This document shows positions 3,313 to 52,576 of a stretch of 64,000 nucleotides of DNA, in pieces. A program made the translations under genes and the position numbers. The notes under the pieces are model-generated. The model had not been told where the DNA came from. It did no database searches and saw nothing but the letters and a program-made list of their open reading frames with translations. Within the stretch, counting starts at the first letter, position 1, and the number at the start of each line of letters is the position of its first letter. This stretch comes from an uncultured Alphaproteobacteria bacterium (lineage in GTDB: Bacteria; Pseudomonadota; Alphaproteobacteria; Rs-D84), in the NCBI GenBank assembly GCA_944389385.1, contig CALXMC010000002.1, positions 15,353-79,352 of the forward strand, in the 5' to 3' direction.

Positions 3313-3336
3313 AAATACACCGATATATGATAGAAT
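3308..3336 (+). promoter_or_regulatory. Putative sigma70 promoter of paralog A
   Basis: ttcaaa-N17-tagaat upstream of an aaggac RBS-like sequence and ATG 3361. Confidence 0.45.
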
Positions 3337-3360
3337 TATGTAAATAGGAAGGACCTTTTT

Positions 3361-6375: not shown

Positions 6376-6385
6376 TCTGTGATGA

Positions 6386-9331
6386 ATGTTGAAACGAATA
6401 CTTGTTGTTTTGATGTTTGTGTGCGGGTTTAATATTCCCGCAGATGCTGCAACACGCAGTGTTTCGACTCGTACCGTGTCGCGAAATGCTGCGCCGGTGG
6501 CGAATGCCCCGGCGACCGCGGTTGCAGCACGCAGCGCAACGACGTCAACAAATCCATCCGCCGGTGTCGCGGCGCGCGCGGCAACAACACAAAAAGTTAT
6601 CGGAACGGGTACCAAAGTTGTTGCAGCAACCAAGCCCGTCGTTTCAAACGAAGAATGCCAACAAAAATATTTCGGTTGCATGGATTCGTTGTGCATGTTG
6701 GACAGTGCCAATGGTGGGCGGTGTGTGTGCAGTAATAAAAATGCGACCTTTGATTCCATTTTGGCTGAAATCGAAGATTTTGATTTGAAAACATATCAGA
6801 TGGTAACCGTTGGTGTCGACAGTCTGGAACAGGGGTACGATATAAACGCGGTTTATGCCAAACCTGAATCTGGGGTGGATTTGTCGGCATGGAATGCTGT
6901 GTCAGATGAAGAGTTTGTGCAATCGTCGTCGGCTTTGCCGTTAAGTGACGTGACGGGTGATGCTTTGTTTTTGGCCGCACATCAAAATTGTGCTGCTGCG
7001 ATTCCTGAATGCAGTGCCAATATGCAATTTTTGCAATTGTTATACAGCCAACAAATAAATAATGATTGTGCCGCGTATGAAAATTCGTTAAAACAGCGTC
7101 GTAATGAAGCCGCACAAAAATTAGAGTCTGCCCGTTTGGGGTTGTTGGATGCGTCTTATACCGCGTTAAGTAATGCCAATAAATGGGATTTGGGACAATG
7201 CGCGGTGGAATTCAAAAATTGTATGATTTCCACGGGTGGATGTGGTGCCGATTTTTCGGGATGTGCGCCAATCGCTGCGTTTGATGCAACAAACGCCCGT
7301 TCATCTGGGGCAGGGCGGCAATATAATATCGCGGGCGAACAAACCACCGTTACAATTTCTGCATCTACGTATGATACTTTGTTATCTAAAAAGCCGTTGT
7401 GTGATAATGTTACACAAAATTGTCAATCCGTAGCGGATCAGGTTTGGGATACATTCCTGCGTGCGAATGCGCCCCAGATTAAATATGCTGAACTGATTGC
7501 CGAAGATAACGCGCGCCAGGATTGTGTCGGCGATGTGTCGTCTTGTTTCCAACGTGCGTGCCGCGATAATATTGATCCGAAAGATCCGTCGGGGTCGTAT
7601 GATGCGTGTCTGACGCGGCCCGGGACAATGTTGTCGCTTTGTACTGTGCCGTTGAATGCGTGTGGGATTTCGACTGAATCAGCCGAGGCCGCAGAAAAAT
7701 CGGATATATGGCAATTTGTTTTGGCGCGTTTGGCATCTATGCGTGTGAATTCTTGCACCACTGAATTCAAAGAATGTTTGCAATCACCGGACAGATGCGG
7801 TTCTGATTATACTCAATGTATTGGGTTGGATACTGATACAATAATGCACATGTGTCCGTATGACACCTTGGTCGGATGCCAGCAGGTTTATGGCGCGCGC
7901 AATATTCGCGGTAATGCAGTATATGACGAATTGTACAATGTTGCCCAGGGTATCTTTTTGAACATAGATAATGAAATGTTGGATTATTGCGAAGCCGCAC
8001 TGGAACAGGCGACCATTACCGCATGTGGCGATTTGGATACGTGTAAAACACTGGTTGATGATACTTTGTTGGGAACTCGTTCGTTAAATTATGAAGTGTG
8101 TGAAATTGTTTTCTTGGATGAAGGTCAAAAAATCGCGTATCAAAACTGTGTTGCAAATGCGGGATTGGTGTCGGATGAAAAATTGGGGCGCGTGGTAAAT
8201 GCAGGCGGCGAAGGACTGGGGCCTGTTACCCCGATGGGTGGTGTGATCGACGGCAATATTTATTGGGATGGCGTTAAAATTGACGACGATGGAAATATCA
8301 GCAATGTGGATGAGTATTTCAAAAATATAGGAATCACAGAACCAGAACAGGATGAATATAATTCCGTTCATCGTGAATTGGGGCAATTGCAAAATAATTT
8401 ACAGCGGATTTATGACGTAATTGAATCCGATCCCACGGTGCAGTTTTGTATGACTGGGCGCGAAGTGGATGGAATAAAGCCTTATTCGGGTACGTCTGTG
8501 CCACGTTTCCCAGAATTAACCAAGTCCACACGTCTGAAAATTGCAAATCAGGGTCTGCGCCAGGCGATGGATAATTATTATCAAAAATATGATAAGTTAC
8601 AGGCGCAACAGGCCGAAGATTATGCGACCATTACCGAACGTTTGGCGGAAAATCGTGGCGAAAACGGCAAAGATGCCCGCCGCGATGCCGCACGTCAATC
8701 CTGTGTCGATTTGGCCAAGGGTGCGGCACTGCCACGTGCGAAAACCCCCACGTCTTTGATTGGAATCATTACCACAATAGTTGTGGTTATCGCAGTTGTG
8801 ACCGTCGTTACTGTATTTACAGCCGGTGCCGGTACAATAGCGGCAGGGGCGGGTATGGCGGCCGGATTCGAGGCTGCTGCGGGTTCTGGATTATCACTTA
8901 CAACTGTTTCTACTTTGAGTGCTGTTGGAACAGGCGCGGGGTTATCCGGTGCGTCTGGGGCTGGACTTAGCGGAATTGCGGCTGCGGCTTTTAGTGCCAC
9001 TACGACTTCTTTGGCAACATCGGCAACGGTTGCAACGGTTGTTGGGGTTGTTGGTGGAACGGCCGCCGCTGCGGGTATTACGGCCGCCGCCGCGGTTGAT
9101 TACACTGGCCCCCAGGCGGTCGATGGTTCTGGGGAATTGCAGGGCAGGTATGAAAATGACCAATGGAATTATCGCGAAGTCATCGAAACGCGGTTTAATA
9201 TGGATACTTTGGTGTGTGAAAAGTGTGTAACCCAACAACAGTGTAATCAGACAAAATCGCCTTTCTTTGGTAATATGTACTGTAACAGTTGGGCAGATCC
9301 TGTTACTGAGTGCACGGATATTCAGTTTTAA
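6386..9331 (+). CDS. Secreted Cys-rich paralog 'C' (981 aa) with long Gly/Ala hydrophobic segment
   Basis: Signal peptide and the same Cys spacing as A and B; hydrophobic Gly/Ala stretch of about 110 aa (LIGIITTIVVVIAVV...AAAGITAAAAV) before the C-terminal domain ending DIQF. Confidence 0.9.
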   Translation: MLKRILVVLMFVCGFNIPADAATRSVSTRTVSRNAAPVANAPATAVAARSATTSTNPSAGVAARAATTQKVIGTGTKVVAATKPVVSNEECQQKYFGCMDSLCMLDSANGGRCVCSNKNATFDSILAEIEDFDLKTYQMVTVGVDSLEQGYDINAVYAKPESGVDLSAWNAVSDEEFVQSSSALPLSDVTGDALFLAAHQNCAAAIPECSANMQFLQLLYSQQINNDCAAYENSLKQRRNEAAQKLESARLGLLDASYTALSNANKWDLGQCAVEFKNCMISTGGCGADFSGCAPIAAFDATNARSSGAGRQYNIAGEQTTVTISASTYDTLLSKKPLCDNVTQNCQSVADQVWDTFLRANAPQIKYAELIAEDNARQDCVGDVSSCFQRACRDNIDPKDPSGSYDACLTRPGTMLSLCTVPLNACGISTESAEAAEKSDIWQFVLARLASMRVNSCTTEFKECLQSPDRCGSDYTQCIGLDTDTIMHMCPYDTLVGCQQVYGARNIRGNAVYDELYNVAQGIFLNIDNEMLDYCEAALEQATITACGDLDTCKTLVDDTLLGTRSLNYEVCEIVFLDEGQKIAYQNCVANAGLVSDEKLGRVVNAGGEGLGPVTPMGGVIDGNIYWDGVKIDDDGNISNVDEYFKNIGITEPEQDEYNSVHRELGQLQNNLQRIYDVIESDPTVQFCMTGREVDGIKPYSGTSVPRFPELTKSTRLKIANQGLRQAMDNYYQKYDKLQAQQAEDYATITERLAENRGENGKDARRDAARQSCVDLAKGAALPRAKTPTSLIGIITTIVVVIAVVTVVTVFTAGAGTIAAGAGMAAGFEAAAGSGLSLTTVSTLSAVGTGAGLSGASGAGLSGIAAAAFSATTTSLATSATVATVVGVVGGTAAAAGITAAAAVDYTGPQAVDGSGELQGRYENDQWNYREVIETRFNMDTLVCEKCVTQQQCNQTKSPFFGNMYCNSWADPVTECTDIQF

Positions 9332-35922: not shown

Positions 35923-38433
35923 ATGAGAGTAAAAATCTTTTTGACGTCTGTGTTATGTTTGATTGTGGCGGGGGTGGCGGTTGATTCTTTTGCGTTGACG
36001 GCTGCTAAAAAACAGGCTGCGATTCAACAAGGTACGACCGTGCGTACCAAAGTTGAAGCCACTGGTTTGTACGACCAGGCGTGTTATGACGCTTATTTCA
36101 GTTGCATGGATCAATTTTGTATTACTGAAAATGCCAGTGGTGGTGCATGCGGGTGCAGTGATGATATTATTGGGTATAATTCCGAGTTGGAAGAAATCCA
36201 GGCGATGATAAATGAAGCCAACCGTATTCGCACGGAAGAGATTGAACGTGTTAAAGCCGGTGCCAATGCTGATATTGTGTTTTCGGGCGAACGCCGGTAT
36301 GATAAAGATGGTAATATTCTGGATGTGGGCGAATATACCGAAGAAGAACAGAAAGAACGTGAACGTGCCGATTTGTTGGCTATGTGGAATACCACCTATG
36401 ATGACGAAGAAGATATTTGGGATGATGGTTCTGGGGAAGATATGTCCACTATGCAGGGGGCGCAATTAAAAAGTGCCGCCAATGAACTATGTGTGAACCA
36501 GGTGCCCGAAGAATGTGCGGATGATTTGGCGTTCTTGCAACAATTATATTCGCGTCAAATTACATCTGATTGTTTGGGATTCAAAAATTCTTTGGCCAAG
36601 CAGCGCGCAGATGCGGAAATCGAATTGGCAGATGCAGAAAGCGCTGTGCGCACCGCGTTACAGGAAAGTTTTGAAAGCGCAAATAAATACGACCTGGGGC
36701 AATGTATGGTCGAGTTCAGAAATTGTATGCGTACCGAAGATGCGTGTGGTGAAGATTGGGAAAATTGCGTCGGCGTCGTTGCCGCTGAAAATGCCCAGGC
36801 TGAAACAACCAGTACCGCCGGAACCAAATATAAAAGTGTCGATACATTCTTTATATCCGATGCGACAATGGAAATTTTGAATTCAAAACGTCCGATTTGC
36901 GAAAGTGTTTTGGCACAATGTGTTGCCGTCCGGGACGAGGTTTGGCCCCGTTTCTTGAAAGAATCCGCACCCACAATTCGTGTGGCGGAAAGTATGGCTG
37001 AATCCAAATTCCGTCAATCTTGCCTGACCAAGATTTCTGATTGTATTCAAACCGCGTGCCGTGATGATATTGCGGGCAAAGGGGTCGCAACCATGGATGC
37101 GTGTTTGGCACGTCCCGATATGGCGCGCAGTTTCTGCAAGGTTGAAATTGACCCATGCGAACGCATGGAACCCCAGATTTGGGACTATGTCCAAGATAAA
37201 TTGGCCGCTATGCGTGTGGACGCATGTACCCAGGAAGTAAAAGATTGCTTTACTGCGGATACACGTTGTGGGCCGAATTTTGAAAACTGTATCGGTATGG
37301 ATTATGATTACATCCATGATATATGCCCAATTGACTCATTGGTCGTGTGTAAACAAGATAATGAAAATTTCAGTATGGATGATTTGGATGGAATCTTGAT
37401 GGGGTTGTATCTGAATATCGATAATGCCTTGATAGAACAGTGTCAAAATCTGGTCGATCAAAAAATGGCTGAAATTTGCGGCAGTACAACCGACTGTAAT
37501 TACTTCGCGGCCGATGATACGATTGGTTCGGGATCGTTGCGTTCGCAAAAAGATGGCGATATATATCGCGTGACTGGGATGATTTCGTTCGGCAGTATCA
37601 AGATGGGCGACATGGATGGTGAAACCGTTGGTGATGGTAATGGTGGCACGATGAAATTGGGCCCGGGTGAAATCGGTGTTGCGGATTATATAGAAAAAAT
37701 AAAAGAAGAAAATAAAAATAACGGCATGGATGAAGAAGAACGTAATGCCATTATCGCAACAATCGAAGAAGAACTGAATAATATCGCGGGTACGATTAAC
37801 CGAACAATAGATTTAATCGAAAGTGACCCTGAAATTCAGTACTGTGTAAGCGGGCGCGATTTATCACAAATTACCGGGGAAGAGGGCGCAAAAACATCCG
37901 CACGATTCCCGAATTTGTTGAACCAGGTAAAGATGCAGATTGCTGTATCCGCATTGCGTCAGGCCCAGGATAATTATAACGCGAAATTAAATACTGCAAT
38001 AGCAGAAGCAACACGTGATGCCGACCTGGACGTCGCACAATACATGTGCCAAAAAATGGCCGAGAATGGCGGCACGAGCACGGTGGGCGTGGAAACCCGC
38101 ACAACGTTGGCACCGCCGTACTCCATCAGTTACGAGGTTGGCGTCGGTTTGACTGCTGATGAATTGACCCAGGGCGGTTCAGGCGTTGTACGTTCCGGTG
38201 GCGTCAAGTTCAGCAATGGCGGATATTTGGGCGGTGCCAGTTTTGAAGGTGGCGGTTCGTCCAAAGAAGTTACGGCCATATTCAGTCGTGAGACCAGAAT
38301 CTGCCACATCTGTACAACAATTACGACCGAGAATTGTAAAACAACGGGCAGCAGCAGTTGGTTCCACAATAATCGGAATACATCTTGCAGCACGGAAACA
38401 ACCGATCCAATATGCGAAGATATCCAGATGTAA
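35923..38433 (+). CDS. Secreted Cys-rich family member (836 aa), closest to A/B/C
   Basis: CYDAYFSCMDQFC, ANKYDLGQCMVEF, LAAMRVDACT, IESDPEIQYC, RFPNL; ends DPICEDIQM. Confidence 0.9.
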   Translation: MRVKIFLTSVLCLIVAGVAVDSFALTAAKKQAAIQQGTTVRTKVEATGLYDQACYDAYFSCMDQFCITENASGGACGCSDDIIGYNSELEEIQAMINEANRIRTEEIERVKAGANADIVFSGERRYDKDGNILDVGEYTEEEQKERERADLLAMWNTTYDDEEDIWDDGSGEDMSTMQGAQLKSAANELCVNQVPEECADDLAFLQQLYSRQITSDCLGFKNSLAKQRADAEIELADAESAVRTALQESFESANKYDLGQCMVEFRNCMRTEDACGEDWENCVGVVAAENAQAETTSTAGTKYKSVDTFFISDATMEILNSKRPICESVLAQCVAVRDEVWPRFLKESAPTIRVAESMAESKFRQSCLTKISDCIQTACRDDIAGKGVATMDACLARPDMARSFCKVEIDPCERMEPQIWDYVQDKLAAMRVDACTQEVKDCFTADTRCGPNFENCIGMDYDYIHDICPIDSLVVCKQDNENFSMDDLDGILMGLYLNIDNALIEQCQNLVDQKMAEICGSTTDCNYFAADDTIGSGSLRSQKDGDIYRVTGMISFGSIKMGDMDGETVGDGNGGTMKLGPGEIGVADYIEKIKEENKNNGMDEEERNAIIATIEEELNNIAGTINRTIDLIESDPEIQYCVSGRDLSQITGEEGAKTSARFPNLLNQVKMQIAVSALRQAQDNYNAKLNTAIAEATRDADLDVAQYMCQKMAENGGTSTVGVETRTTLAPPYSISYEVGVGLTADELTQGGSGVVRSGGVKFSNGGYLGGASFEGGGSSKEVTAIFSRETRICHICTTITTENCKTTGSSSWFHNNRNTSCSTETTDPICEDIQM

Positions 38434-38459
38434 AAAATCCCCCGTCTGGGGGATTTTTT
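38433..38459. terminator. Intrinsic terminator
   Basis: aaaaaatcccc-cgtct-ggggatttttt hairpin. Confidence 0.75.
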
Positions 38460-38536
38460 ATCGTAATAAAATTCCTAGACATTTTTATAAATAAATGTGA
38501 TATTATATGTGCGTACAATAACAAAAGGGGTTGTGA

Positions 38537-38917
38537 ATGAAAAAAATATCGATTGTGGCGGCTGCGGTCGCTTTGGTTTCTGGGGCTGCTGTGGCTGATT
38601 TTCGTCCAAATGCGCCTCAGCCGAATGTTAATATGCGTGGTGGTTTCGTCGGTGGCGAAGAACAGATTTCAACCGTAAAACAGGCAAAAGAAATGCGTGA
38701 TGATGTTCCTGTTATTTTGCAGGGACGTATTGTTCAACGTATGGGCGGCGAAAAATATTTATTTGAAGACGCAACAGATTCAATCACTATCGAAATCGAC
38801 GATGATGATTGGCGCGGCCAGGTTGTAACACCGTCTGATACAGTAAAACTGTATGGCGAGGTTGATGCCGGTTTATTCAAGACTGAAATCGATGTAGATT
38901 ACGTCGAAAAGATGTAA
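38537..38917 (+). CDS. YgiW/YdeI-family periplasmic OB-fold (BOF) protein
   Basis: Signal peptide, GGFVG..TVKQAKEMRDDVPVILQGRI..EKYLFEDATDSITIEIDDDDW.GQ.VTP. Confidence 0.88.
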   Translation: MKKISIVAAAVALVSGAAVADFRPNAPQPNVNMRGGFVGGEEQISTVKQAKEMRDDVPVILQGRIVQRMGGEKYLFEDATDSITIEIDDDDWRGQVVTPSDTVKLYGEVDAGLFKTEIDVDYVEKM

Positions 38918-38944
38918 AAAAGTCCGCCAATCGGCGGATTTTTT

Positions 38945-39440
38945 AGTTACTTGTTATTCGTGATAGACCACCCCGCCCGGATTCTACCCACGCAAACTAT
39001 GTTTGCGCGGGACCCGGGGCGGTGGGCGTTCGTGCGACCGATGCGACGTGTAGCCCTTTCCACTCTTGGGCGGTGGGGATTAGACCACCCCGGCACGCTG
39101 GCGCGTGCCACCCCTCCGCTAGATGAGGAACTTTGTTCTGCGACGGTACTGGGGGCAGCCCCATCCGTTGTAAAGGGGGACTTAGGCCGTGGTGGGAAGG
39201 TACCAAGTTCCCCTCCATTGGAGGGGTGGCGGCTTGCCGCCGGGGTGGTTAGAGACTGCGGAATTATCCACTTAGTCCCTTTGTCATCGCGAGCGGAGCG
39301 TGGCGATCCAGTAAATAAAAAAGCACTGCGGGCGGATGCCCGCAGGCATATTGCACTGGATTGCCACCGTCGTACGACAACGGTTCCAACGTTTCGCGCT
39401 CCTTCGCAATGACAGCGGGGAAATCACGAGTAACCTGTAA
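38945..39440. repeat. Composite palindromic repeat cluster 4
   Basis: Same modules as clusters 1 and 6, including an inverted copy of the 348-487 element at 39283-39413. Confidence 0.9.
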
Positions 39441-39468
39441 CAAAAAACGGGGCGATGCCCCGTGCTTA

Positions 39469-40581
39469 TTAACGATTGGTTAATTGTAATTCTATACGAC
39501 GATTTTGTTGCAAACTGGTCGCGTCGGTACCCAAAGTAACAGGGTGTAAATCGCCAAAACCACTGGGAACCAGGCGACGACGCGATACACCATTGGCCGC
39601 CAATTCGGTCGCCACAGCGTTCGCACGCAACAATGACAGTTCCATATTATTCGAATAATCGCGCGTGCCACGCATAACTTGTTTGCGATCTGTATGTCCG
39701 TCAACGCGGATAATCCAATCGATGTCTGTCGGGATTTTGTCTTCCAAATCGCGGATTACCTTTGCAATCAAGCGCAGTTGATTTTTACCCTCGGGCGACA
39801 GGGTATAAGAACCACTGCTGAACAAAATATCGCTGGAAATTATGAAACGGTCGCCTTGGGCCTCGATAAATTTTTCTTCGCCAAGTGCGTCTTTTATTCC
39901 GCGGTAAAATTCAGATTGGTATTGTGCAACGTCATTTAATTCTGCGACTTTATCGGCCAAAGCCTGGTTCAATCGATTCGACATTTCCAGATATTCTATG
40001 TCTTTTTGGTTTGATTCTTCTTGGGCGGCATCCAGTGCGGCCTGTAACTTATTTAATTGTTCGGCCAATTCTGCACGTTGTGCTGACATTTCTTGCTGTA
40101 ATGCGCGGCGTTCTTGTTCCAGTTCAGCGGTGCGTTGTTTGTCCAAGTTGGCCTGATTCAATTGGGTGGTTAATTCAGCGACCTGGGCCGACAAATCCGC
40201 GCCCTGGGTTTGTAATTCTGCGACTTTGGCCTCGTAATCTGCAATCAGTTCATCCATTGTCATATCAACCTGTTGCAGTTCGGTGGTTAATTGGTTGTTA
40301 TTTGCAGATAAATTTTCCAATTCGGCACGCGCCAAAATCAGTAAACGTTTGGCTTCTTCTTCGTCGGCAGTCATTTGCACAATGCGTTCAGATTGTTCTG
40401 CGTTGATTTTTTTCAAATCAGCCACCGTTTTCGCACCTGTGTCACGGTTAAATACACTGGTTGTTGTCCATAAAAACACAAACACAATCAACAAAAATAT
40501 AAGTATAATCACCAGGTTCGAAAACAAATCAACGAACGCAGGCCAAGTGTTTGCACGTTCACGAAATCTGAAATTCATCAT
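39469..40581 (-). CDS. MotB/OmpA-like peptidoglycan-binding protein with long coiled coil
   Basis: TM segment WPAFVDLFSNLVIILIF (conserved Asp), coiled coil, ILFSSGS, VDGHTD, NMELSLLRA, GFGD, NRRIEL. Confidence 0.88.
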   Translation of the reverse strand: MMNFRFRERANTWPAFVDLFSNLVIILIFLLIVFVFLWTTTSVFNRDTGAKTVADLKKINAEQSERIVQMTADEEEAKRLLILARAELENLSANNNQLTTELQQVDMTMDELIADYEAKVAELQTQGADLSAQVAELTTQLNQANLDKQRTAELEQERRALQQEMSAQRAELAEQLNKLQAALDAAQEESNQKDIEYLEMSNRLNQALADKVAELNDVAQYQSEFYRGIKDALGEEKFIEAQGDRFIISSDILFSSGSYTLSPEGKNQLRLIAKVIRDLEDKIPTDIDWIIRVDGHTDRKQVMRGTRDYSNNMELSLLRANAVATELAANGVSRRRLVPSGFGDLHPVTLGTDATSLQQNRRIELQLTNR

Positions 40582-40605
40582 TTTTCTCTCTCTTTTTTTG
40601 GGACC

Positions 40606-41355
40606 TTATTGTGTAACTGTGTTTTTTATTTGGCGCAGATTGTCATTTATCTGGGGCAGAACAGTTGCGACTGTATCCGTGGTTGCGACACTTGTGTGTG
40701 CAGACAGATAATCTTCAACCTCGCGGAAAATGGCATTCTGAGCCAATTGAACCTGTAACCCCAGGAATCCGACAGCCAAACTGCCCGCCAATCCCATCAG
40801 TGAACTGGTAAATGCGGTCGCCATGCCCGACAAAGGGCGGGTCAGGCCGGCCTGCATATTTTGTAAAACCGATTCGTCCGAAAAATCCAAAGCACCGATT
40901 AAGTCTGCAAATCCGCCGACGGTTAAAATCAGTCCCCAAAATGTTCCCAATAATCCCAAAAATATCAGCGTGTTTGTGATATACCGCACCGATTCGCGTG
41001 AATCTTCGAAACGATTCAAAATCATTTCCAACATGCCGTTCAATGTTGTCCCAGATATGCGGACGGGGCGTGCACGCAATATCAACGCCACGGGCCGCAA
41101 CAAACGCGGGGGCAGGGCAACCCGTTTGCGGCCTGAAAAATACGCACGTGCCCATTTGTATTCGGGTAATAATTTGAATATTTCAACAAAGCACAGTCCA
41201 ATTCCGAAAACAGTTGTACCAATGATGATGCCGTTTAATAACACGTTTGCCGCCGCTATGCGTAAAAATGGCGCATAGAACAAAATCAACCCAACCAACA
41301 ATAATGCTGTGAACAAAGCCATGCGGTTAAGTGCGTTATGGAATTGGCGTGTCAT
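40606..41355 (-). CDS. MotA/TolQ/ExbB proton-channel family protein
   Basis: LIFLGLLGTFWGL, GMATAFTSSLMGL. Confidence 0.85.
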   Translation of the reverse strand: MTRQFHNALNRMALFTALLLVGLILFYAPFLRIAAANVLLNGIIIGTTVFGIGLCFVEIFKLLPEYKWARAYFSGRKRVALPPRLLRPVALILRARPVRISGTTLNGMLEMILNRFEDSRESVRYITNTLIFLGLLGTFWGLILTVGGFADLIGALDFSDESVLQNMQAGLTRPLSGMATAFTSSLMGLAGSLAVGFLGLQVQLAQNAIFREVEDYLSAHTSVATTDTVATVLPQINDNLRQIKNTVTQ

Positions 41356-41495
41356 GAATCTCTCTTCTTTTGGTACCTTTACAATGATGGTAGTAAATTT
41401 TTATCGTTCAAGTCAAGCGGTTACATCACCGTATCTTTGGTTATTAACACAACATCCGCATGGTATGGTACAGAAAAAGTTTGTGAATATGGATG

Positions 41496-42059
41496 TTAAT
41501 CCAAAAATGTCGTGCATGGGTCAGACTGCAATTTCTGCAAGTCTGCTTGGTCGCTTTCGGAATTGTCATAGAACAGATAAAACACGACTTTTCTGTCCGT
41601 TTTTTTATCTTCCTGGGAACCTGTTTTTACTTTGGCACATTGTGCGCCGACCCCACGACTTATAATTTTTACGTTTTCTGGCCGATTTTTCCAATTGGTT
41701 TGGATATAATCAGCCGCTGACAGTGCGCGTTTTGCTGATAATTGTTCGTTTGTACAAATCTTTTCTTTTGCGCACAAATCAGAAGTTTGGATAATCTTGT
41801 TGTTGTCTGTATGCGCAATCAAATACAATGTTGCAGGATAATCTGTAAACGATGCCGCATTTTCTTCAAATTTTTCAATAACATCATCCAAAACTTTACT
41901 ATTTTCTATCTTATACACCCCATCACCAAACAAAGACTCATTATACAGCCTCAATAACTCTGATGATTCCGTTTCTTCGGCCTGTGGGGCGTCTTCCTTT
42001 TCCTGTGTACTTGGTTGATCTGGATAACATCTGCCATTACCGGTATTCAAGGACTGCAA
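41496..42059 (-). CDS. 5'-truncated OmpA-like C-terminal cassette, paralogous to the 3' end of 43484-45373
   Basis: No signal peptide or RBS. About 77 codons near the start are almost identical to the 43484-45373 product, then a divergent OmpA-like tail (HTD..NEQLSAKRA..RGVG..DRKVVF). Confidence 0.8.
   Translation of the reverse strand: MQSLNTGNGRCYPDQPSTQEKEDAPQAEETESSELLRLYNESLFGDGVYKIENSKVLDDVIEKFEENAASFTDYPATLYLIAHTDNNKIIQTSDLCAKEKICTNEQLSAKRALSAADYIQTNWKNRPENVKIISRGVGAQCAKVKTGSQEDKKTDRKVVFYLFYDNSESDQADLQKLQSDPCTTFLD
41806..42037 (-). repeat. Left arm of 232-bp inverted repeat (partner 44763-44994)
   Basis: Manual alignment gives 232 bp with 5 mismatches. Confidence 0.95.
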
Positions 42060-42188
42060 ACGGCATAAAGCCCAAAAGAAAAAGAACCAGAATTCCGCCT
42101 TTTTTTATCTTTGAAAAATGCCGAAAAAAAAGGTTGGATTTTTTTGGCAAAATATGGGATAATGTCAAGGATCAGAAAGAATGAGAGA

Positions 42189-43487
42189 ATGAAGTTATTT
42201 CGCAGTATTTTTATTGCCGTCATTGTGATAGTTCCTGGTTTGGCGCGGGGTGAAGTTGCTAAGTTTCCAAAAGAGTATACTATGGACGCTGCCAATTCGC
42301 CAGTTTTTTATAATTCTATGATCCAACAACTTTGTGTGGGTGGCGACGGTACCATGGTGTTTATGGGATTACAGGCCATAAGGATAAATTGTACCAATGG
42401 TTGGAAAAATAACGCCGAACCAACCCAAGCAGAATTTGACAAAGCATATGATGCAGCATTGTCAACGGCCGGGATTGGTAACAGTGCCGCTGAGAAAAGT
42501 ACGAAAAACACCGATACAGTTGTATCCAGAAATACAACATCACGTGGTGGTTCTGCATCCGTTGCTACGTCGACAGTGCCGGCGTCGGGAAATCGAACGG
42601 ATTATACAGTTGTCGGCAATATTGTTCGTTACACTGGTATGATTTCTGATTGGGATTTTGTAAATGCTGATTTAAACACGGGTGGTCGCAAGGCCTTTGA
42701 CAATCATTTGACGGAAAAATTCTGTATGACCACCGCGGGTAACAACGTTACTGTTGACCAGGCAGGCATAGTAATTACCTGCAATACGATAAAACCAGAA
42801 AGTATGCGCCCCAACAGTTTATTGGAAGAATATTATTACGCCCTGTGTCGTGGCAAATGTGCTGATGGTGGGGGCACATACAGCAGCGGCAGTGGAACTG
42901 GTGACGGATGCGTTTGTAAAGGAATCGTCAAGCCCGAACCCATCCCAGAATATGATGCAGAAAAATTAGAGAGATTAAATGCCCAGGTCGCACGTCAAGC
43001 GGATAAAAGTATAAGCAAAGATGTGAAACAATTAGAACAGGAATCCGATAAGGAACTGCAAAAAGATGTAAAGGCTGACTCGCGCCAGTTGGACAAGGAT
43101 ATTCAAACGGAATTCAACGATATTGACGAAAGTACAGAAAAACTGACGGACGAATTAAATCGCCAAAAGTTCGAGTCCGATATGGAACAGGCTGCAATCG
43201 ATGATGCGTTAATTTCCGTCGATGAAATAAATTCAGAATCCGATAAGGAACTGCAAAAACAGCTAGAATGTGAATCTAAAAATCCACCAAAGGCGGCCAA
43301 GAAAAATTTCCTTGGTATTTGGGTCTGTGTTGATACCCAGGAAACTGTTGATGCACGCAAGGCTGCGCGGGCAACAAATAAAATCTTAAACGCATTCTGG
43401 AACGAAATGGAAGACTTGGAACGTGCATTTAATAAACGCGTGCGCCAGTTGCGACGTGATGCCAAACGCGATGGGGATGACAAATGA
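42189..43487 (+). CDS. Secreted hypothetical protein with Cys motifs and acidic coiled coil
   Basis: Signal-like MKLFRSIFIAVIVIVPGLARG at ATG 42189; putative -10 gataat near 42157; stop overlaps the start of the next gene (ATGA). Confidence 0.8.
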   Translation: MKLFRSIFIAVIVIVPGLARGEVAKFPKEYTMDAANSPVFYNSMIQQLCVGGDGTMVFMGLQAIRINCTNGWKNNAEPTQAEFDKAYDAALSTAGIGNSAAEKSTKNTDTVVSRNTTSRGGSASVATSTVPASGNRTDYTVVGNIVRYTGMISDWDFVNADLNTGGRKAFDNHLTEKFCMTTAGNNVTVDQAGIVITCNTIKPESMRPNSLLEEYYYALCRGKCADGGGTYSSGSGTGDGCVCKGIVKPEPIPEYDAEKLERLNAQVARQADKSISKDVKQLEQESDKELQKDVKADSRQLDKDIQTEFNDIDESTEKLTDELNRQKFESDMEQAAIDDALISVDEINSESDKELQKQLECESKNPPKAAKKNFLGIWVCVDTQETVDARKAARATNKILNAFWNEMEDLERAFNKRVRQLRRDAKRDGDDK

Positions 43488-45373
43488 TGAAAAGACCATT
43501 GGTTGCCGCTTTGATGTTGTTGTATCCGTTGGTTGCGTTTGGTGCCGCCAAGACTGATGGTGTTGATACATCCAGTTTGGAAAACGCACAAACGTTCGAT
43601 GATTTGAAAGCCGCTTACCAGGATACTTCAAATGAAGTGATGAAAAAATATGATAAGCAGATTGATCGAGAGGAAATTATTGCAGCCCAGGGTCAAGTCT
43701 TGGAGAATATAGAAGCGTTAGACGAAGTGCTTGCAGAAGACGCGTTAAAAGCAGAAAAAGAAGCAAAAAAGAACCAAGACTCAGAGCCCGATGCGACATT
43801 ATCAGAAGAAGATTCATTGGCGCAGATAGAAGAATTACAGGCGAATGCGGACGCTATGCGTGAAAAAGAACAATCGTTTGGTAATCGTATGGTTGGTGGT
43901 GCAGCCATGGGCACGATGGGGATTGGGGGTCAGATGATAGGTTCTGCGTTGGCGGAACAAAGCGCTGATTCAGATGCAGAAATGGATATGGCTGCATACC
44001 TTGCGACATTCAAATGCGATTATGGTGCCGGGAAAAATATCGCGGGCGGTACGCTGAATGTGGAATTGCCTGGTGCGAATATATTATTGCCGATATATAC
44101 AGAATACGTAACATTGGCGGCGGATTTGAAGACTCGGAAAGAAGCGTTGGGGATGGCGCCAGGGATAGAATCGAACGAGATATTGGATGCGGCGACATCT
44201 GGTTTATATGACAATGTGTCGACTGGGGTGACGGGTGGTGCGTATGCGTCGATTGCGCGCGCGCTGATGAATCCCGAGGGTGCGGATGCAGCGGCCTGGG
44301 CGGCACAAAAGGCGGAAACGTCTGAACAATTAAAGGCAGGTGCGATAACGGCTGGGGTTGGTGCCTTGGTTGGGATAAGTGGCAATGTATTGCTGAACGA
44401 GATAGGTCCGAACAAGGTTGAAGAACGCAGTGATGAAATAATGTCTGAATACGACAAGAAACGCCGCATCATCCGCGAAGAGTTGGAAGAAGTAGAAGAA
44501 GATTCATTGGAACAACAAATCACTGAAGCCCCCGACGTCGAACCGTTTAAGATAAGTGATGCGGAGTTGGCATGTCAATCTGTGGGAACGTGGGATGCAG
44601 AGTTAAATACCTGTCATTGCAATAATGGAAATCCATGGGATTTTGATAATTTGGTTTGCATGGGTGATGAAGTGATAAATGGAGATAGTTGTTTTGATTC
44701 TGGTGGTGAATGGGATGGTGATAAGTGTGTGTGTCCAGATAAGTATAGGTTGAATCCCAGTGATGGCAGATGTTATCCAGATCAACCAAGTACACAGGAA
44801 AAGGAAGACGCCCCACAGGCCGAAGAAACGGAATCACCAGAGTTATTGAGGCTGTATAATGAGTCTTTGTTTGGTGATGGGGTGTATAAGATAGAAAATA
44901 GTAAAGTTTTGGATGATGTTATTGAAGATTTTGAAGAAAATGCGGCATCGTTTACAGATTATCCTGCAACGTTGTATTTGATTGCACATACAGATCGTGA
45001 TGATGTTCGGAAAAATTCTTCTTTGTGTCGAAATGATAAGATTTGTGACAATGATGCGCTTTCCGAGGCGCGGGCGAATTCGGTAAAGAATTATTTGAAA
45101 GAACATTGGCCAAGTAATCTGACCGATGTAAAAATAAAAACGCAGGCCGCTGGGGAAAAATGTGCAGATCAGAGTGCAATTAGCGACGACAAACAGAAAT
45201 TAGACCGAAAAGTCGTGTTTTATCTGTTCTTTGATGATGTTAAAGCTGATCAGGAGTATTACGAGCAGTTACAGGACAATCCCTGTTATAAGTTAAACAG
45301 AAAATCAAGTACTGTAAGTGAAGCGGTTAGAGAGACAAATGTTTTGAAAAAATTGTTTAAAAACATGGCTTAA
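43484..45373 (+). CDS. Secreted protein with glycine zippers, Cys-rich mini-repeats and C-terminal OmpA-like domain
   Basis: Signal peptide, GGAAMGTMGIGG, AGVGALVGISG, CxxxGxW..CxC repeats, HTD...NDALSEARANSVKNYL...DRKVVF. Confidence 0.85.
   Translation: MMKRPLVAALMLLYPLVAFGAAKTDGVDTSSLENAQTFDDLKAAYQDTSNEVMKKYDKQIDREEIIAAQGQVLENIEALDEVLAEDALKAEKEAKKNQDSEPDATLSEEDSLAQIEELQANADAMREKEQSFGNRMVGGAAMGTMGIGGQMIGSALAEQSADSDAEMDMAAYLATFKCDYGAGKNIAGGTLNVELPGANILLPIYTEYVTLAADLKTRKEALGMAPGIESNEILDAATSGLYDNVSTGVTGGAYASIARALMNPEGADAAAWAAQKAETSEQLKAGAITAGVGALVGISGNVLLNEIGPNKVEERSDEIMSEYDKKRRIIREELEEVEEDSLEQQITEAPDVEPFKISDAELACQSVGTWDAELNTCHCNNGNPWDFDNLVCMGDEVINGDSCFDSGGEWDGDKCVCPDKYRLNPSDGRCYPDQPSTQEKEDAPQAEETESPELLRLYNESLFGDGVYKIENSKVLDDVIEDFEENAASFTDYPATLYLIAHTDRDDVRKNSSLCRNDKICDNDALSEARANSVKNYLKEHWPSNLTDVKIKTQAAGEKCADQSAISDDKQKLDRKVVFYLFFDDVKADQEYYEQLQDNPCYKLNRKSSTVSEAVRETNVLKKLFKNMA
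44763..44994 (+). repeat. Right arm of 232-bp inverted repeat (partner 41806-42037)
   Basis: atggcagatgttatccagatcaacc...attgcacatacaga matches the reverse complement of 41806-42037. Confidence 0.95.
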
Positions 45374-45422
45374 AATATGTATTTATGCGAGTTTTTCCCG
45401 CACGGGTTGTGCGGGATTTTTT

Positions 45423-45760
45423 AGTTACTCGTGACTTGTTACTCGTGTTTCATCCTTTGCCAGGGCTTCGGGTGATAAGTCCCCACCCCCCGTCGCGCTT
45501 TGCGCGACACCCCCCGCCCCCACACCGGGCCCCGCGCAAACAAAGTTTGCGTGGGTGGATTCTGGGGCGGTGGGCATTCGTACGACCGACGCGACGAATT
45601 ATTGTAATTCTTTCCACTCTTGGGCGGTGGGGATTAGACCACCCCGGCACTTCGTGCCACCCCTCCGCAGAGGGGAACCTAGACCGCGACGGTATGGTCT
45701 AAGTTCCCCTCCATTGGAGGGGGGGCGGTCACCAGACCGCCGGGGTGGTTAGAGACTGCG
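45423..45760. repeat. Composite palindromic repeat cluster 5
   Basis: gttactcgtg, catcctttgccagggcttcgggtga, ggggcggtgggcattcgtacgaccg...ctttccactcttgggcggtgg, accaccccggcacttcgtgccacccctcc. Confidence 0.88.
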
Positions 45761-45786
45761 ACCTTTTGTAGCTTTTAACAAAACGC

Positions 45787-45869
45787 TTGATTTTATTAAA
45801 ATTTTCGGCATAATTGGTGGGATTCCTGCTGACGACATGGGGTTGTCGGCTGTATAAACCAAAGGAAAC
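45787..45869 (+). promoter_or_regulatory. rpsF promoter and probable S6:S18 autoregulatory leader
   Basis: TTGATT-N16-CATAAT. In the leader, TTCCT (45823) can pair with the SD-containing AGGAA (45863) around an inner hairpin gctgacgac/gttgtcggc, leaving CCA unpaired before the SD, as described for S6:S18 leaders. Confidence 0.55.
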
Positions 45870-45874
45870 TTTGA

Positions 45875-46213
45875 ATGGCTTACTATGAAAGCGTCCTGGT
45901 TTTTCGCCAGGATCTGACCGAACCGCAGGTCAAAGAAAAAGCGGCAAAATATGCTGACATTGTTCGCGAATTGGGCGGGGATGTTAAATCTACCGAGTTT
46001 TGGGGATTGAAAAATCTGGCCTATATCATCCGTAAAAATCGCAAGGCACACTATGTTATGTTGAATATCGATTTGCCGGGCGACAAATTGGCGGAATATG
46101 AACGGCGTGCCCGTATCGACGAAGACGTTATTCGTTTCTTGAACGTTCGTGTCGATGAATTATCAGATGCGCCGTCAATCATGATGAAAAAGAATACCGA
46201 GGAGGCTGAATAA
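45875..46213 (+). CDS. rpsF: 30S ribosomal protein S6
   Basis: [40 protein letters not shown]. Confidence 0.97.
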
Positions 46214-46440
46214 TGGCAGTTCGTGCAGCAATTTATCGTAAGAAATCTAACCCATTAAAGGGCAAGGTTATCGATTACAAAGATGTTAAAACACTGTTGC
46301 GTTTTATCACTGAACGCGGCAAAATTGTTCCGTCGCGTATCAGTGGCGTGTCCCAGAAAGATCAGCGCGAGTTGGCAAAAGCCATCAAGCGCGCACGGCA
46401 TTTAGGGTTGTTGCCATTCGTTCGTAACAATCTGGGATAA
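46213..46440 (+). CDS. rpsR: 30S ribosomal protein S18
   Basis: [46 protein letters not shown]. Confidence 0.97.
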
Positions 46441-46483
46441 AAATCAATCATAGCGCACCATCTGCGCGCGGTTGGGCTTGCTC

Positions 46484-46712
46484 ATGTATGTCAAATACAC
46501 TACGCAATCCCAACCGGACGCATCTGGTACGTTATGATTGATTTTGCGGGGTCTGGGGTGAACGCTGCCAATCCCCGCACATAATCGCCCCAGGTGTGTA
46601 CGGTTTGTGTAATGTATGTCAAATACACTACGCAATCCCAACCGGACGCATCTGGTACGTTATGATTGATTTTGCGGGGTCTGGGGTGAACGCTGCCAAT
46701 CCCCGCACATAA
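46484..46712 (+). repeat. Two identical 101-bp direct repeats (46484-46584, 46612-46712) with a 27-bp spacer
   Basis: atgtatgtcaaatacactacgc...ccccgcacataa occurs twice. Confidence 0.95.
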
Positions 46713-46773
46713 CTGAATCAGGTACAGAAAAATATTTGGGTTTTACCCTAACTTGAAATAAAGGACAGATAAA

Positions 46774-47385
46774 ATGAAAATTATTTTAACAGAAAAAATT
46801 ACAAAATTGGGCAACATCGGCGATACTGTCGAGGTTAAAACAGGTTTCGCACGCAATTATTTGTTGCCATTGGGCAAGGCTATGCGTTGGTCGCGTGAAA
46901 ATGTGGCTTTGTTCGAAGCGAAAAAGGCTGAATTGCAGGCGCGTCAGGATGCCGCACGTAAATCTGCCGAGGCCAATGTGGATGCGGTTAAAAATGCAAA
47001 ATTGTATATGATTCGTCAGGCCGGTGATACAGGTCAATTGTATGGTTCTGTTTCTACGCGCGATATTGCGCGCACATTGCGCGAGATTGCAAATGTTGCA
47101 GTTGAATCAGCCCAGGTTATGTTGGGCGCGCCGATTAAATCAGTTGGTGTGTTCGATACGCAAATTGCTTTGCATCCGGATGTTATCGTTCCGGTCAAAG
47201 TATATGTGGCACAAACCCAAGATGAAATCGAGGCTCTGGTTGCGGGTAAAGTTCTGACGTTCGGTAATACAAAGACCGAAGAAGAGGAATCCGAGAATGC
47301 AGCGGAATCCGCAGATGAACAACCGGCTGAACAACAGCCAACAGAAGAAGCGCCGGTCGAAGAAAAAGCGGCAGACGCAGAATAA
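46774..47385 (+). CDS. rplI: 50S ribosomal protein L9 with acidic C-terminal tail
   Basis: MKIILTEKITKLG.IGDTVEVKTGFARNYLLP.GKA, GQLYGSV, LHPDV. Confidence 0.97.
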   Translation: MKIILTEKITKLGNIGDTVEVKTGFARNYLLPLGKAMRWSRENVALFEAKKAELQARQDAARKSAEANVDAVKNAKLYMIRQAGDTGQLYGSVSTRDIARTLREIANVAVESAQVMLGAPIKSVGVFDTQIALHPDVIVPVKVYVAQTQDEIEALVAGKVLTFGNTKTEEEESENAAESADEQPAEQQPTEEAPVEEKAADAE

Positions 47386-47412
47386 AAAAATCGCCCATCT
47401 GGGCGATTTTTT
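47384..47412. terminator. Intrinsic terminator
   Basis: aaaaaaatcgccc-atct-gggcgatttttt; the same stem occurs at about 49008-49038. Confidence 0.8.
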
Positions 47413-47452
47413 ATTAAATTTTTTATCGGGCTTGTTATATAATGGGCGCGAA

Positions 47453-48106
47453 ATGAAGTTGGATTCTGTTGGTGTTTTAATAAATTTGCGTCCCTTTGGT
47501 GAACGGGATTGTGTCGCACATGTTTTTACCCGTGATTTCGGTGTAATGTGTGGTGTTATGCGCGGGGCCCAGGTCGCACGAAAAAACAGACCGTTAATTG
47601 GACAAATTGGCGATGTTTCATGGAATGCGCGACTGGATTCACAGTTGGGTGCGTTTCATTGGGAGTCTGAAAAAAATTTGGCTGCACCGTTGATGATGCG
47701 GCATGAGACATTATCATATATGAATGCGACATTCGCTTTGGTTGATGCTTTGTTGCCAGAACGAGAACAGTTTTGTACGTTATATAACGAAACAATCGAA
47801 CTGATGCGCGAGTTAAACGGAAATAACCCAAAACAGGCGTATTTGGTGTGGGAAATTTCGCTTTTGCGTGAATTGGGATATGCGCTGAATTTAACGGCTT
47901 GTTCAGGATGTGGAACTTGCGAAAATTTAATGTATTTATCGCCGCGGACTGGGCGGGCGGTATGTGAAAAATGTGCCGCGCCGTATATCGAAAAATTGTA
48001 TAAATTGCCGTTGGATTTAAGTGTTACTGGGGCGTTTTTGGAACGGGCTTGCGCGGCCCAAGGTGTTGATTTGCCGTGCGCACGAAAAAAGTTGAAAATC
48101 TGGTAA
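47453..48106 (+). CDS. recO: DNA repair protein RecO
   Basis: RPFGE.D...VFTRDFG, WNARLDSQLG, WEISLLRELGYALNLTACSGCG, YLSPRTGRAV. Confidence 0.9.
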   Translation: MKLDSVGVLINLRPFGERDCVAHVFTRDFGVMCGVMRGAQVARKNRPLIGQIGDVSWNARLDSQLGAFHWESEKNLAAPLMMRHETLSYMNATFALVDALLPEREQFCTLYNETIELMRELNGNNPKQAYLVWEISLLRELGYALNLTACSGCGTCENLMYLSPRTGRAVCEKCAAPYIEKLYKLPLDLSVTGAFLERACAAQGVDLPCARKKLKIW

Positions 48107-50329: not shown

Positions 50330-50830
50330 ATGAGATGTCCATATTGTAATTCAACCGACAGCCGGGTGACTGATTCACGCCCAGATACCGAAGACGCAAT
50401 TATTCGGCGTCGTCGTGTATGCAACCAATGTGGCGCGAAATTTACAACCGTTGAACGCGTGCAGATGCGCGATTTAATGGTGCGTAAAAACAGCGGAAAG
50501 TTGGAGCCCTTTGATCGCGAAAAATTGCGCCGCAGTATTAAATTGGCGTGCCGTAATCGCGATGTCGGGGACGAGCAAATTGAAAAACTGGTAACGTCGA
50601 TACATCGGCGTTTGGAAACAGAAACCGCCGACGATACGGTGACAAGTGTCGCCGTCGGTCAGATGGTGTCAGATTCTTTGTTGAATCTGGATCCGATTGC
50701 GTTTGTGCGTTTTGTATCTGTGTATCGTAAATTTTCGCGCATTTCGGATTTCAAAAAAATCATAGAACAAATACCCGAGGCGGACGAGGGCGCTGCGGTT
50801 TGCCAGTTGCCGAAAACAACTTTGTTCTGA
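50330..50830 (+). CDS. nrdR: Transcriptional repressor NrdR
   Basis: MRCPYC..V.DSR..IRRRRVCNQCG.KFTTVE, ATP cone, AFVRFVSVY. Confidence 0.95.
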   Translation: MRCPYCNSTDSRVTDSRPDTEDAIIRRRRVCNQCGAKFTTVERVQMRDLMVRKNSGKLEPFDREKLRRSIKLACRNRDVGDEQIEKLVTSIHRRLETETADDTVTSVAVGQMVSDSLLNLDPIAFVRFVSVYRKFSRISDFKKIIEQIPEADEGAAVCQLPKTTLF

Positions 50831-50845
50831 CGCAGATAAAAAATC

Positions 50846-52576
50846 ATGAAAAAAATATTCACTTTTTTAATAGCAATATTCTTGCCGTTTGCGGCGGTGG
50901 CGTCTGATTTGCCGGATATAGATGTGTTGTCTGATGCCGACGCCAGTTTATATACACAAATATTTATGTTGCAGCGCGAAGAAGAAATCAGCGCAGCCCA
51001 GAAATTACAAAAACAATTAAACGACCCACTGCTGATAAACGAAGTTTTATATCAGCGTTTCTTTTCAAAAACTTATCGTACCCGTGGCCGGGAAATCGTC
51101 GATTGGATGAATAAATACTATGATATGCCCGGGGCGGAACGCATGGTTAAATTGGCCAAAATAAAGCAGGCCAATGTGCGCAAAGCATACATCCCACGCA
51201 GTATCAGTGGGGGCGTGTCAATTGAAACGCCCCAGTCCGAGACATGGACCGAAAAAAAATACACTGGCGATACCAATACCAAAATCAACAAATTCAAACG
51301 AGCAATTCGCAGTGGTGCAACCAAAACAGCGCGTTTAATATTGGAAGATTCATCGTTCAAACATAAATTAACCGAATCGGATTATGGACGTTTGGCGGGA
51401 CGTTTGTCGTTCATATATTATACAAATGGTGAATTTGAATTGGCCAAAAAATGGGGATTTGTGGCGTCTGATGCGAAATCTGAATATGGTTTATGGGCAA
51501 TGGGGTTGCTGTATTTCAAAGAAGAAAAATTTGATGAAAGTGAAAAATATTTCAGCGCAATATTGGATTTGCCCCAGATAAATAATGCGCGCAAGACCGA
51601 GGCTGCTTTTTGGGCGGGCCGGGCGGCCGATTCGAATGGCCGACGCAGTGCTGCAAAAAAATATTGGAAAATTGCGGCTGCACATCCCATGGCTTTTTAT
51701 GGGGCTTTGTCGTCCGTCATGTTGGGGCGTACACCACGATATGAATTTTTTGAACAAGATTGTACAGATGAAGATGTGGATACTTTGCGTGAGACAAAGT
51801 ATGGGAAAATTGCGCTGGGGCTGTTGCAGGTCGGACAAAAGGACAGGGCGGAATTGTATTTGAAATATATGATTACGTCCAAAGTAACCGATCGCACTTT
51901 GCATGCGATAAATTCAATCGCGACTGCATACGGTTTGCCGCGTGTGTCCATCCAGGCGTCCAGTTTAATCCAAGATCGTGGAATTTTAGAGATAGATGAC
52001 AATATTATTTATTCTGCACAATATCCTTTGCCGGATTGGGAGCCTATGGGTGGTTGGTCGATTGACCGTGCATTGTTGTTGGCGATTACAAAGCAAGAAT
52101 CTGGGTTCCGGGCAAATGCTAAATCAGGGGCGGGGGCAAATGGGGTAATGCAGATTATGCCCAGTACCGCCAAACGCGTCGCGCGTGAAAACAAGGTTGA
52201 TATGTCGGATATAGATATGTTGAATCCTGAACATAATATGTTTTTGGGACAACAATACATCGTCGATTTGTTGGCGCATCCAAATATTAACAATAATATT
52301 ATAAAAATGTTGGCGGCGTATAATGCAGGAATGGGCAATTTGGTTCAATTTGAAAAGATGTTTCAAACTTATGACCCGTTGTTGTATATCGAAAGTTTTC
52401 CTGCGTATGAAACGCGTGCATATATCAAACGCGTGATGGCCAATATGTGGCTGTATCGGGCGCGATTGGATCAGCCACTTACGACTATGCGTGATTTGGC
52501 GGATGGAGAATGGCCGCTGTATAACAGTGAAGACGAATATGTCCAACAACAAATTGCCAATCGTATGGCGATTTAG
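50846..52576 (+). CDS. Soluble lytic murein transglycosylase (Slt70-like)
   Basis: Signal peptide, helical repeats, AITKQESGF, GANGVMQIMPSTA, AAYNAG, ETRAYIKRV. Confidence 0.9.
   Translation: MKKIFTFLIAIFLPFAAVASDLPDIDVLSDADASLYTQIFMLQREEEISAAQKLQKQLNDPLLINEVLYQRFFSKTYRTRGREIVDWMNKYYDMPGAERMVKLAKIKQANVRKAYIPRSISGGVSIETPQSETWTEKKYTGDTNTKINKFKRAIRSGATKTARLILEDSSFKHKLTESDYGRLAGRLSFIYYTNGEFELAKKWGFVASDAKSEYGLWAMGLLYFKEEKFDESEKYFSAILDLPQINNARKTEAAFWAGRAADSNGRRSAAKKYWKIAAAHPMAFYGALSSVMLGRTPRYEFFEQDCTDEDVDTLRETKYGKIALGLLQVGQKDRAELYLKYMITSKVTDRTLHAINSIATAYGLPRVSIQASSLIQDRGILEIDDNIIYSAQYPLPDWEPMGGWSIDRALLLAITKQESGFRANAKSGAGANGVMQIMPSTAKRVARENKVDMSDIDMLNPEHNMFLGQQYIVDLLAHPNINNNIIKMLAAYNAGMGNLVQFEKMFQTYDPLLYIESFPAYETRAYIKRVMANMWLYRARLDQPLTTMRDLADGEWPLYNSEDEYVQQQIANRMAI

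Follow-up and report, generated by a model that had tools for sequence, protein, structure and literature searches.

In a 64,000-nucleotide (nt) stretch of contig CALXMC010000002.1 from an uncultured alphaproteobacterium (assembly GCA_944389385.1), hereafter the window, a gene for a predicted envelope protein of 629 amino acids (aa) lies close to a shorter, oppositely oriented copy of its own 3' end. We refer to the terminal part of the gene as tail A, to that of the shorter copy as tail B, and to the shorter copy as the cassette. The two copies share a long inverted repeat, and comparison with public sequences of the same species points to a recombining cassette locus and not to a switch with just two clean states. 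The host genome is 993 kilobases (kb) in size, 97% complete, and encodes RecA, MutS and MutL. Its habitat is the chicken gut, with 18 metagenome runs from eight studies containing the stretch; the GC content of the window is 0.457. The features on which the argument depends are the following.

41496 to 41805, minus strand: silent cassette tail B, comprising the last 102 codons and the stop codon of an OmpA-like domain, after the HTD codons.
41806 to 42050, minus strand: left arm of the inverted repeat, encoding linker L1 and the start of the OmpA-like domain and ending in ATLYLIAHTD.
42051 to 44749, 2699 nt: candidate invertible segment, holding the inner flank, a promoter-like site, the 432-aa gene and codons 1 to 422 of the 629-aa gene.
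42134 to 42163, plus strand: promoter-like site recognized by eye (TTGGAT, 18 nt, TGgGATAAT, an extended -10).
42189 to 43487, plus strand: gene for a Cys-rich 432-aa protein with a hydrophobic N-terminal leader, the first gene of a putative operon.
43484 to 45373, plus strand: the expressed gene (629 aa), encoding a leader, a central domain, a Cys-rich stretch, L1 and OmpA-like tail A.
44750 to 44994, plus strand: right arm of the inverted repeat, within the 629-aa gene.
44995 to 45373, plus strand: tail A, comprising the last 125 codons and the stop codon.
45203 to 45234, plus strand, paired with 41566 to 41597: short homology island encoding DRKVVFYLF (32 nt, 94%).

The initial annotation of this DNA had reported a 232-base-pair (bp) inverted repeat with five mismatches. 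The repeat is somewhat longer than that: its arms measure 245 nt, are 97% complementary and are separated by 2699 nt. BLAST of the genome against itself aligned them at 96.7% identity across 245 nt, with eight mismatches, five of them in the 232-nt core and three in the extra 13 nt on the inner side. The longest perfect match, read off the alignment, is 89 nt; thus, 150-nt reads are able to phase the arms. Since every other inverted pair between 40000 and 47000 is 42 nt or shorter, the 245-nt repeat is not attributable to chance. The map of open reading frames (ORFs) agreed with the original description in placing one arm inside the complete gene and the other at the head of a leaderless frame. 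This cassette ORF (41496 to 42059, minus strand) encodes 187 aa, begins with TTG and lacks a signal peptide. Near-identity of the copies ends exactly at the HTD codons, and the alignment upheld the strong divergence claimed beyond them: nucleotide identity is roughly half except in the 32-nt island, and the tail A and tail B proteins are identical at 38 of 92 aligned residues (~41%). Arms that are 97% identical beside tails that share about 41% of residues (protein) indicate that the arms have been homogenized. An origin of the repeat in misassembly was ruled out. The exact 629-aa and 187-aa proteins were found on eight and seven contigs, respectively, junctions between flank and repeat were spanned by contigs from three runs, each of a different study, and depth over the repeat core in run X1 was about double that of its surroundings (53 versus 29–33).

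When 42051 to 44749 was inverted in silico, the gene stayed in frame as a 606-aa ORF that closes with tail B, and the silent copy became a 210-aa ORF that closes with tail A. Crossovers placed at the inner end, in the middle and at the outer end of each arm all gave these two products. The proposal that a flip would keep the N-terminus and fuse it in frame to the alternative tail thus held up. So did the assignment of the 42189 gene and the 5' part of the 629-aa gene to the segment between the arms; the promoter also placed there stands only as a promoter-like site picked out by eye. That site was not listed by a consensus scan, which returned a total of 8 sites versus 8.4 in shuffled sequence, and we treat the promoter at 42134 to 42163 as putative.

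Profile searches identify the exchanged, presumably peptidoglycan-binding domain as OmpA-like. Taken as single sequences, the window tails scored 24.5 and 21.8 bits against Pfam OmpA (PF00691), below the 27.2-bit gathering cutoff, and gave weak matches in PDB searches. A profile was built from 19 homologues, of which 15 come from other species of the genus. It matched 34 solved OmpA-like chains at E≤0.01 and did so across the whole domain, with 5wtp_A as the best match (E=1.7e-7, profile positions 5–132). T84, D85, N104, L107, R111 and R156 do not vary across the 19 sequences, among which are both tails, and the residues common to the homologues and both tails can be written as TD, N..L...R, Y, G..CA and R. 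These invariant positions bear out the earlier remark that both tails keep the conserved residues. We take the conserved TD...N..L(S)..R(A) and late R residues to have a role in peptidoglycan binding. Within the repeat, the second half specifies the opening portion of the domain (..LYNESLF.. through ..ATLYLIAHTD); a crossover there would therefore rebuild the domain from two halves.

Upstream of the linker, the 629-aa protein has a hydrophobic N-terminal leader, a second hydrophobic, glycine-rich stretch near residues 285–308, and a conserved central domain with glycine-zipper-like stretches. Eight of its 13 cysteines lie between residues 364 and 430. The central 230 residues belong to a large family that Pfam does not name, with 826 representative clusters found at E≤1e-3. 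Among 57 members scanned from the best 150 representatives, the longest and some short ones being omitted, a Pfam OmpA hit was present in 44 (best E 9.7e-19) and CarbopepD_reg_2 in 34. Elsewhere in the genome, two direct copies of this central domain (C1:71892-72475 and C1:83400-83981) are 96% identical over 584 nt and lie 11 kb apart; one of them carries two in-frame TAA stops.

Proteins of the same species were then surveyed. With the cassette product as query, 25 clusters of longer and eight clusters of similar-sized proteins were retrieved, and expansion of the multi-member clusters, one of which listed 15 of its 19 members, yielded 100 distinct sequences. These were cut at three conserved motifs and the pieces typed against references from the window. 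Full-length forms numbered 42. The window type, with the Cys-rich stretch, L1 and tail A, accounted for 23; another 18 had a short acidic linker, a different linker L2 (or L2') and tail B. The remaining one, P0035, combined the Cys-rich stretch and L1 with tail B and so corresponds to the predicted flipped product. P0035 is 551 aa long, cut within tail B, and encoded on a 3517-nt contig; it is identical to the in-silico product at 534–536 of 551 positions, and up to HTD its nearest relative is P0030 (491 of 504). The 53 cassette-form ORFs all start with codons of the same inner flank. They comprised 19 L1+A, 15 L1+B and 9 L2+B forms, seven hybrids with tail B whose linker joins the first half of L1 to the second half of L2 (L1a/L2b+B), one tail B body with an A end (P0062), one tail A body with a B end (P0095), and one cut sequence; by the tail of the body, 21 were A and 32 were B. 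The other five census sequences were fragments, P0025 among them. Mosaic junctions fell at SLF, ATLYLIAHTD and DRKVVFYLF, the only stretches common to both modules, which is a signature of homologous recombination; the DRKVVFYLF island is the junction site in the two mosaic cassettes P0062 and P0095.

Full-length and cassette proteins could be matched in 20 pairs that had an equal longest-contig size and the same sources, and each pair was taken to come from the same contig. Tail B was expressed in nine of these, always beside an L1+tail A cassette. In the other 11 tail A was expressed, and the cassettes were L1+B (three), hybrid+B (four), L2+B (three) and A body/B end (one). All 20 pairs thus held both a full gene and a cassette. 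Judged from these predicted proteins, a full gene and a silent cassette seem to coexist in every genome, with either tail able to occupy the expressed position. The long cassette ORFs of strains that express tail B reach the antisense of the window's promoter region, placing the silent copy beside the same promoter in both arrangements. Silent tails were as conserved as expressed ones, and the alleles of the two positions were intermixed: mean pairwise identity of tail A was 0.863 among full-length proteins, 0.906 among cassettes and 0.872 between the groups, and two identical tail-B sequences were found in both positions (22, 15, 18 and 31 tails compared; odd-length, cut and hybrid tails omitted). 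On a tail-A tree of 23 full-length and 18 cassette rows, which omits P0025, P0062, P0091, P0095 and P0096, the position label changed seven times, with at least three changes forced by well-supported branches. Shuffled labels gave a mean of 12.5 changes, and none of 500 shuffles was as low as seven. As to the two-state variation originally envisaged, both tails do occur in expressed and silent positions and a fusion such as P0035 exists; a clean two-state flip does not account for the data, because the linker differs as well.

We favor a two-copy cassette system by which an envelope protein varies its C-terminal OmpA-like domain, the part that binds peptidoglycan. The segment with the putative promoter, the 432-aa gene and the first 422 codons lies between opposed copies of the 3' end, tail A being the copy that is read and tail B a silent, 5'-truncated and promoterless one. 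The copies would trade by homologous recombination at conserved coding stretches; in this strain the shared stretch is 245 bp long and 97% identical. If the crossover is reciprocal, which presumably requires RecA, the segment would invert, so that the unchanged N-terminus acquires tail B in a 606-aa protein and tail A is left behind as a 210-aa silent copy. Non-reciprocal exchange between the copies (gene conversion) would also occur and probably made the long repeat, and exchange would be faster or slower according to how long and how similar the shared stretch is. The P0094/P0095 pair fits such conversion, the partner gene being unchanged. P0062, which has no contig-matched partner, fits gene conversion too. 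That RecA is encoded and the window has no recombinase favors RecA-dependent recombination. We put the probability of a recombining cassette system, using homologous inversion and gene conversion at coding repeats, at about 0.55. Within it, we infer that the position swap is a physical inversion, effected by RecA and not by a dedicated invertase, and that it takes place at a useful rate in this strain; active two-state switching in the window's strain is plausible.

A number of observations weigh against this interpretation. The P0035 fusion is one sequence in 42, its contig ends in tail B, and it possibly reflects a chimeric assembly or a mixture of strains. Its mirror form, P0025 (short linker, L2' and tail A), is a lone fragment on a 1117-nt contig. 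The pairing of proteins was by inference, made for other strains at the protein level, and recombination of tail alleles between strains could also yield the pattern of the tail-A tree. Proteins that express tail B are without the 75-aa Cys-rich stretch and have the short acidic linker and L2 in place of L1, and a search of the window's genome found no copy of the short linker/L2. Since cassettes begin only at the linker and the other linker is missing from the genome, the common arrangements are not interconvertible by one internal inversion. Two ways around this were tried and rejected. A single inversion between the common haplotypes predicts the wrong linker whether the crossover is placed at the inner border, SLF, HTD or DRKVVFYLF, and a hidden second copy of the short linker/L2 was ruled out by the genome search just mentioned. 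Linker identity within pairs was 77/85 in the window, 68/85 and 54/65 residues in two other strains with an L1+B cassette, about 50/85 for hybrid cassettes and about 24/82 for L2 cassettes. The longest and most similar repeat seen is that of the window's strain; by these comparisons the long repeat is strain-specific, with related strains sharing half a linker or none. MutS and MutL would, moreover, damp recombination between arms that are 3% diverged. Neither a tyrosine nor a serine recombinase was hit in the 64-kb window, and on the contig the closest serine recombinase is about 46 kb off. Finally, no second orientation emerged from the four runs, out of the 18, that were mapped. Assembled contigs of X1, X6 and X12 terminate inside the arms and are unable to link flank to flank, and in the raw-read run X19, where depth was at most ~6, no strand-switch joint was seen at the arms. 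A scan of JGI metagenome contigs turned up one distant locus only, at 38% identity. The tail is present in three of 41 genomes, the window's own counted, and in 16 of 257 genomes of the genus, with two adjacent copies only in the window's genome.

Several of these points are equally those expected of a static relic with occasional gene conversion, in which the cassette is left over from an old duplication or inversion, the species has two fixed haplotypes (tail A expressed or tail B expressed) that are kept by selection and shuffled by recombination between strains, and the 245-bp repeat is a recent conversion tract without a role in switching. Common haplotypes that differ in a linker the other's genome lacks are not two states of one genome, the repeat ranges from none to full length between strains, and the P0062 and P0095 mosaics are best explained by non-reciprocal conversion, the partner gene of P0095 being unchanged. 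The contigs that end in the arms, together with the shallow raw reads (≤~6), also showed no heterogeneity of orientation. Nevertheless, some recombination is to be expected between inverted arms of 245 bp and 97% identity in a cell that has RecA, both the predicted fusion P0035 and its mirror P0025 exist in public data, and silent tails are conserved like expressed ones. None of the 53 cassette-form ORFs is disrupted, though broken copies would escape retrieval as ORFs of that size. We regard the relic as a real but rather doubtful alternative.

Site-specific inversion might instead be carried out by a recombinase supplied in trans, such as an orphan small serine recombinase, at short sites where the arms meet the inner flank. 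This would explain why L1 and L2 cassettes start at the same point of the inner flank (MQS followed by LN..., MPFAV followed by LD...), which is odd for random breakpoints. The genome does have two small serine recombinases, of 198 and 231 aa, amid housekeeping genes. They lie outside the window (C5:111680-112105 and C2:107020-107445) with a YbaK-like editing protein, a glycosyltransferase and rpsB as neighbors, and one of them is about 2.5 kb from a 1831-aa paralogue of the central domain. Such a mechanism is hard to reconcile with the distance of the nearest serine recombinase noted above and with the location of mosaic junctions at internal homology islands, as homologous recombination predicts. 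The protein it predicts, with the Cys-rich stretch, L2 and tail B, was found in none of the 42 full-length sequences, and no short shared motif was found, short sites not having been searched for systematically. We therefore consider it improbable. More improbable still is that the cassette is an independently expressed small gene, or that the repeat is an assembly artefact. The L2-type cassettes have an in-frame ATG (MPFAVL...) and the cassette is called as an ORF in many assemblies. The window frame, on the other hand, starts with TTG and is leaderless though its domain binds peptidoglycan outside the cytoplasm, and the scan listed no promoter-like site upstream of the cassette on its strand; the contig and depth evidence given above speaks against an artefact.

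Gene-altering programmed inversions (Milman et al. 2023, PMC9881135) and partial intergenic invertons (Chanin et al., 10.1101/2023.03.11.532203), which are shufflon-like, have the architecture found at this locus. Their described signatures are an asymmetry between gene and pseudogene and variation within species (PMC9881135; 10.1101/2023.03.11.532203), and a neighboring recombinase is described as usual and not obligatory (PMC9881135). As in the inversions so described, one arm lies within a gene while its partner belongs to a shorter homologue that has no promoter and is on the opposite strand, inversion in silico swaps a domain in frame and leaves the alternative frame intact at three crossover positions, and the arrangement varies within the species, here at the protein level. 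Unlike them, the present locus has no nearby recombinase, a 245-bp coding repeat and an OmpA-like target. The term 'OmpA' has no occurrence in the main text of PMC9881135, the supplementary tables being outside that count. The locus belongs to this known class of gene-altering inversions, with an unusual target.

Other precedents differ in instructive ways. The phage Mu G segment (Gin), the P1 C segment (Cin) and the R64 shufflon join a constant N-terminal part to alternative C-terminal parts by inversion, using a dedicated invertase and short sites, with the variable parts within the invertible segment. At our locus the promoter and the constant part are inside the segment and the variable tails outside, and the arrangement typical of Hin, Gin, Cin or the shufflon, a dedicated invertase beside short border sites, was not found in a comparison that did not search for short sites systematically. 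In Neisseria pilE/pilS, Borrelia vlsE and Anaplasma msp2, promoterless 5'-truncated silent copies feed an expressed gene and mosaics arise at short conserved stretches. Here, by contrast, a single cassette is inverted, adjacent and itself altered, as the seven L1a/L2b hybrids and the P0062 and P0095 mosaics show. This departs from one-way copying out of unchanged silent donors and points to reciprocal or two-way exchange. By analogy, the locus would work most like the RecA-dependent sap inversion of Campylobacter fetus, in which a promoter segment inverts between opposed homologues by way of a long conserved coding sequence and without a dedicated invertase. Whole genes are exchanged at their conserved 5' ends in sap; in the present case the last third of one gene would be exchanged, by a crossover inside a folded domain.

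Three further features border the locus.

39469 to 40581, minus strand: MotB-like peptidoglycan-binding gene, on the same strand as the cassette and downstream of it.
40606 to 41355, minus strand: MotA/ExbB-like gene, likewise downstream of the cassette on its strand.
45396 to 45416, plus strand: terminator-like hairpin and T-run, directly past tail A.

Scanning of the cassette strand disclosed no terminator-like site between the cassette and the MotA/MotB-like genes, and in the flipped state the operon would face both of them (41355 to 39469). It is conceivable, if unlikely, that the three most conserved structural motifs of the OmpA-like fold (..SLF.., ATLYLIAHTD and DRKVVFYLF) serve as the crossover points themselves, so that inversion and gene conversion rebuild the domain from alternative halves without a recombinase, and one RecA-driven switch changes both the wall anchor of the envelope protein and expression of the adjacent MotA/MotB-like stator pair. 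The 432-aa protein (42189 to 43487) matched no known family, and Rfam gave no match within 38000 to 47500. In some other strains (P0013, P0043) the 432-aa gene and the beginning of the 629-aa gene give way to a single gene of 852–870 aa, which shares the leader and the central domain and has CarboxypepD_reg-like domains; contigs of runs X6 and X12 skip parts of 42214 to 43392. A modular, GC-rich intergenic repeat (45385 to 45730 and ~38951 to 39412; GC 0.60 versus 0.457 for the window) has copies flanking the block that runs from the motB-like gene through the motA-like gene and the cassette to the operon. It gave 120 BLAST hits in its own genome and no Rfam match, and metagenome depth over it was 200–840.

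Additional repeats were noted in the genome. Outside the window, a perfect inverted repeat of 211 nt (C1:35003-35213 and 36567-36777; 100%) surrounds a gene for a 459-aa protein with a leader-like N-terminus and includes the stop codon, and another of 359 nt (C4:45721-46079 and 50644-51002; 100%) duplicates a 101-aa ORF; both may be further invertible segments. Within the window, 913 to 9328 holds three large paralogous ORFs of 800 aa (minus strand), 1004 aa and 981 aa (plus strand), with 74–79% nucleotide similarity in inverted and direct orientation and no Pfam family.

The inversions so far known to alter a coding sequence concern mainly restriction specificity subunits, pilins, tail fibers and SusC/D-like proteins. 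The part exchanged here is half of the peptidoglycan-binding OmpA-like domain of an envelope protein, in an uncultured chicken-gut bacterium with a genome of about 1 Mb and with no invertase nearby. Should switching prove inactive, the locus would be an ordinary relic with gene conversion. If it is active, a strongly reduced genome retains a device for recombinational variation, and diversifying pressure acts on a domain generally regarded as periplasmic and invariant. The mosaic found across the population, with junctions at three conserved motifs, is a clean natural case of within-domain shuffling by recombination.

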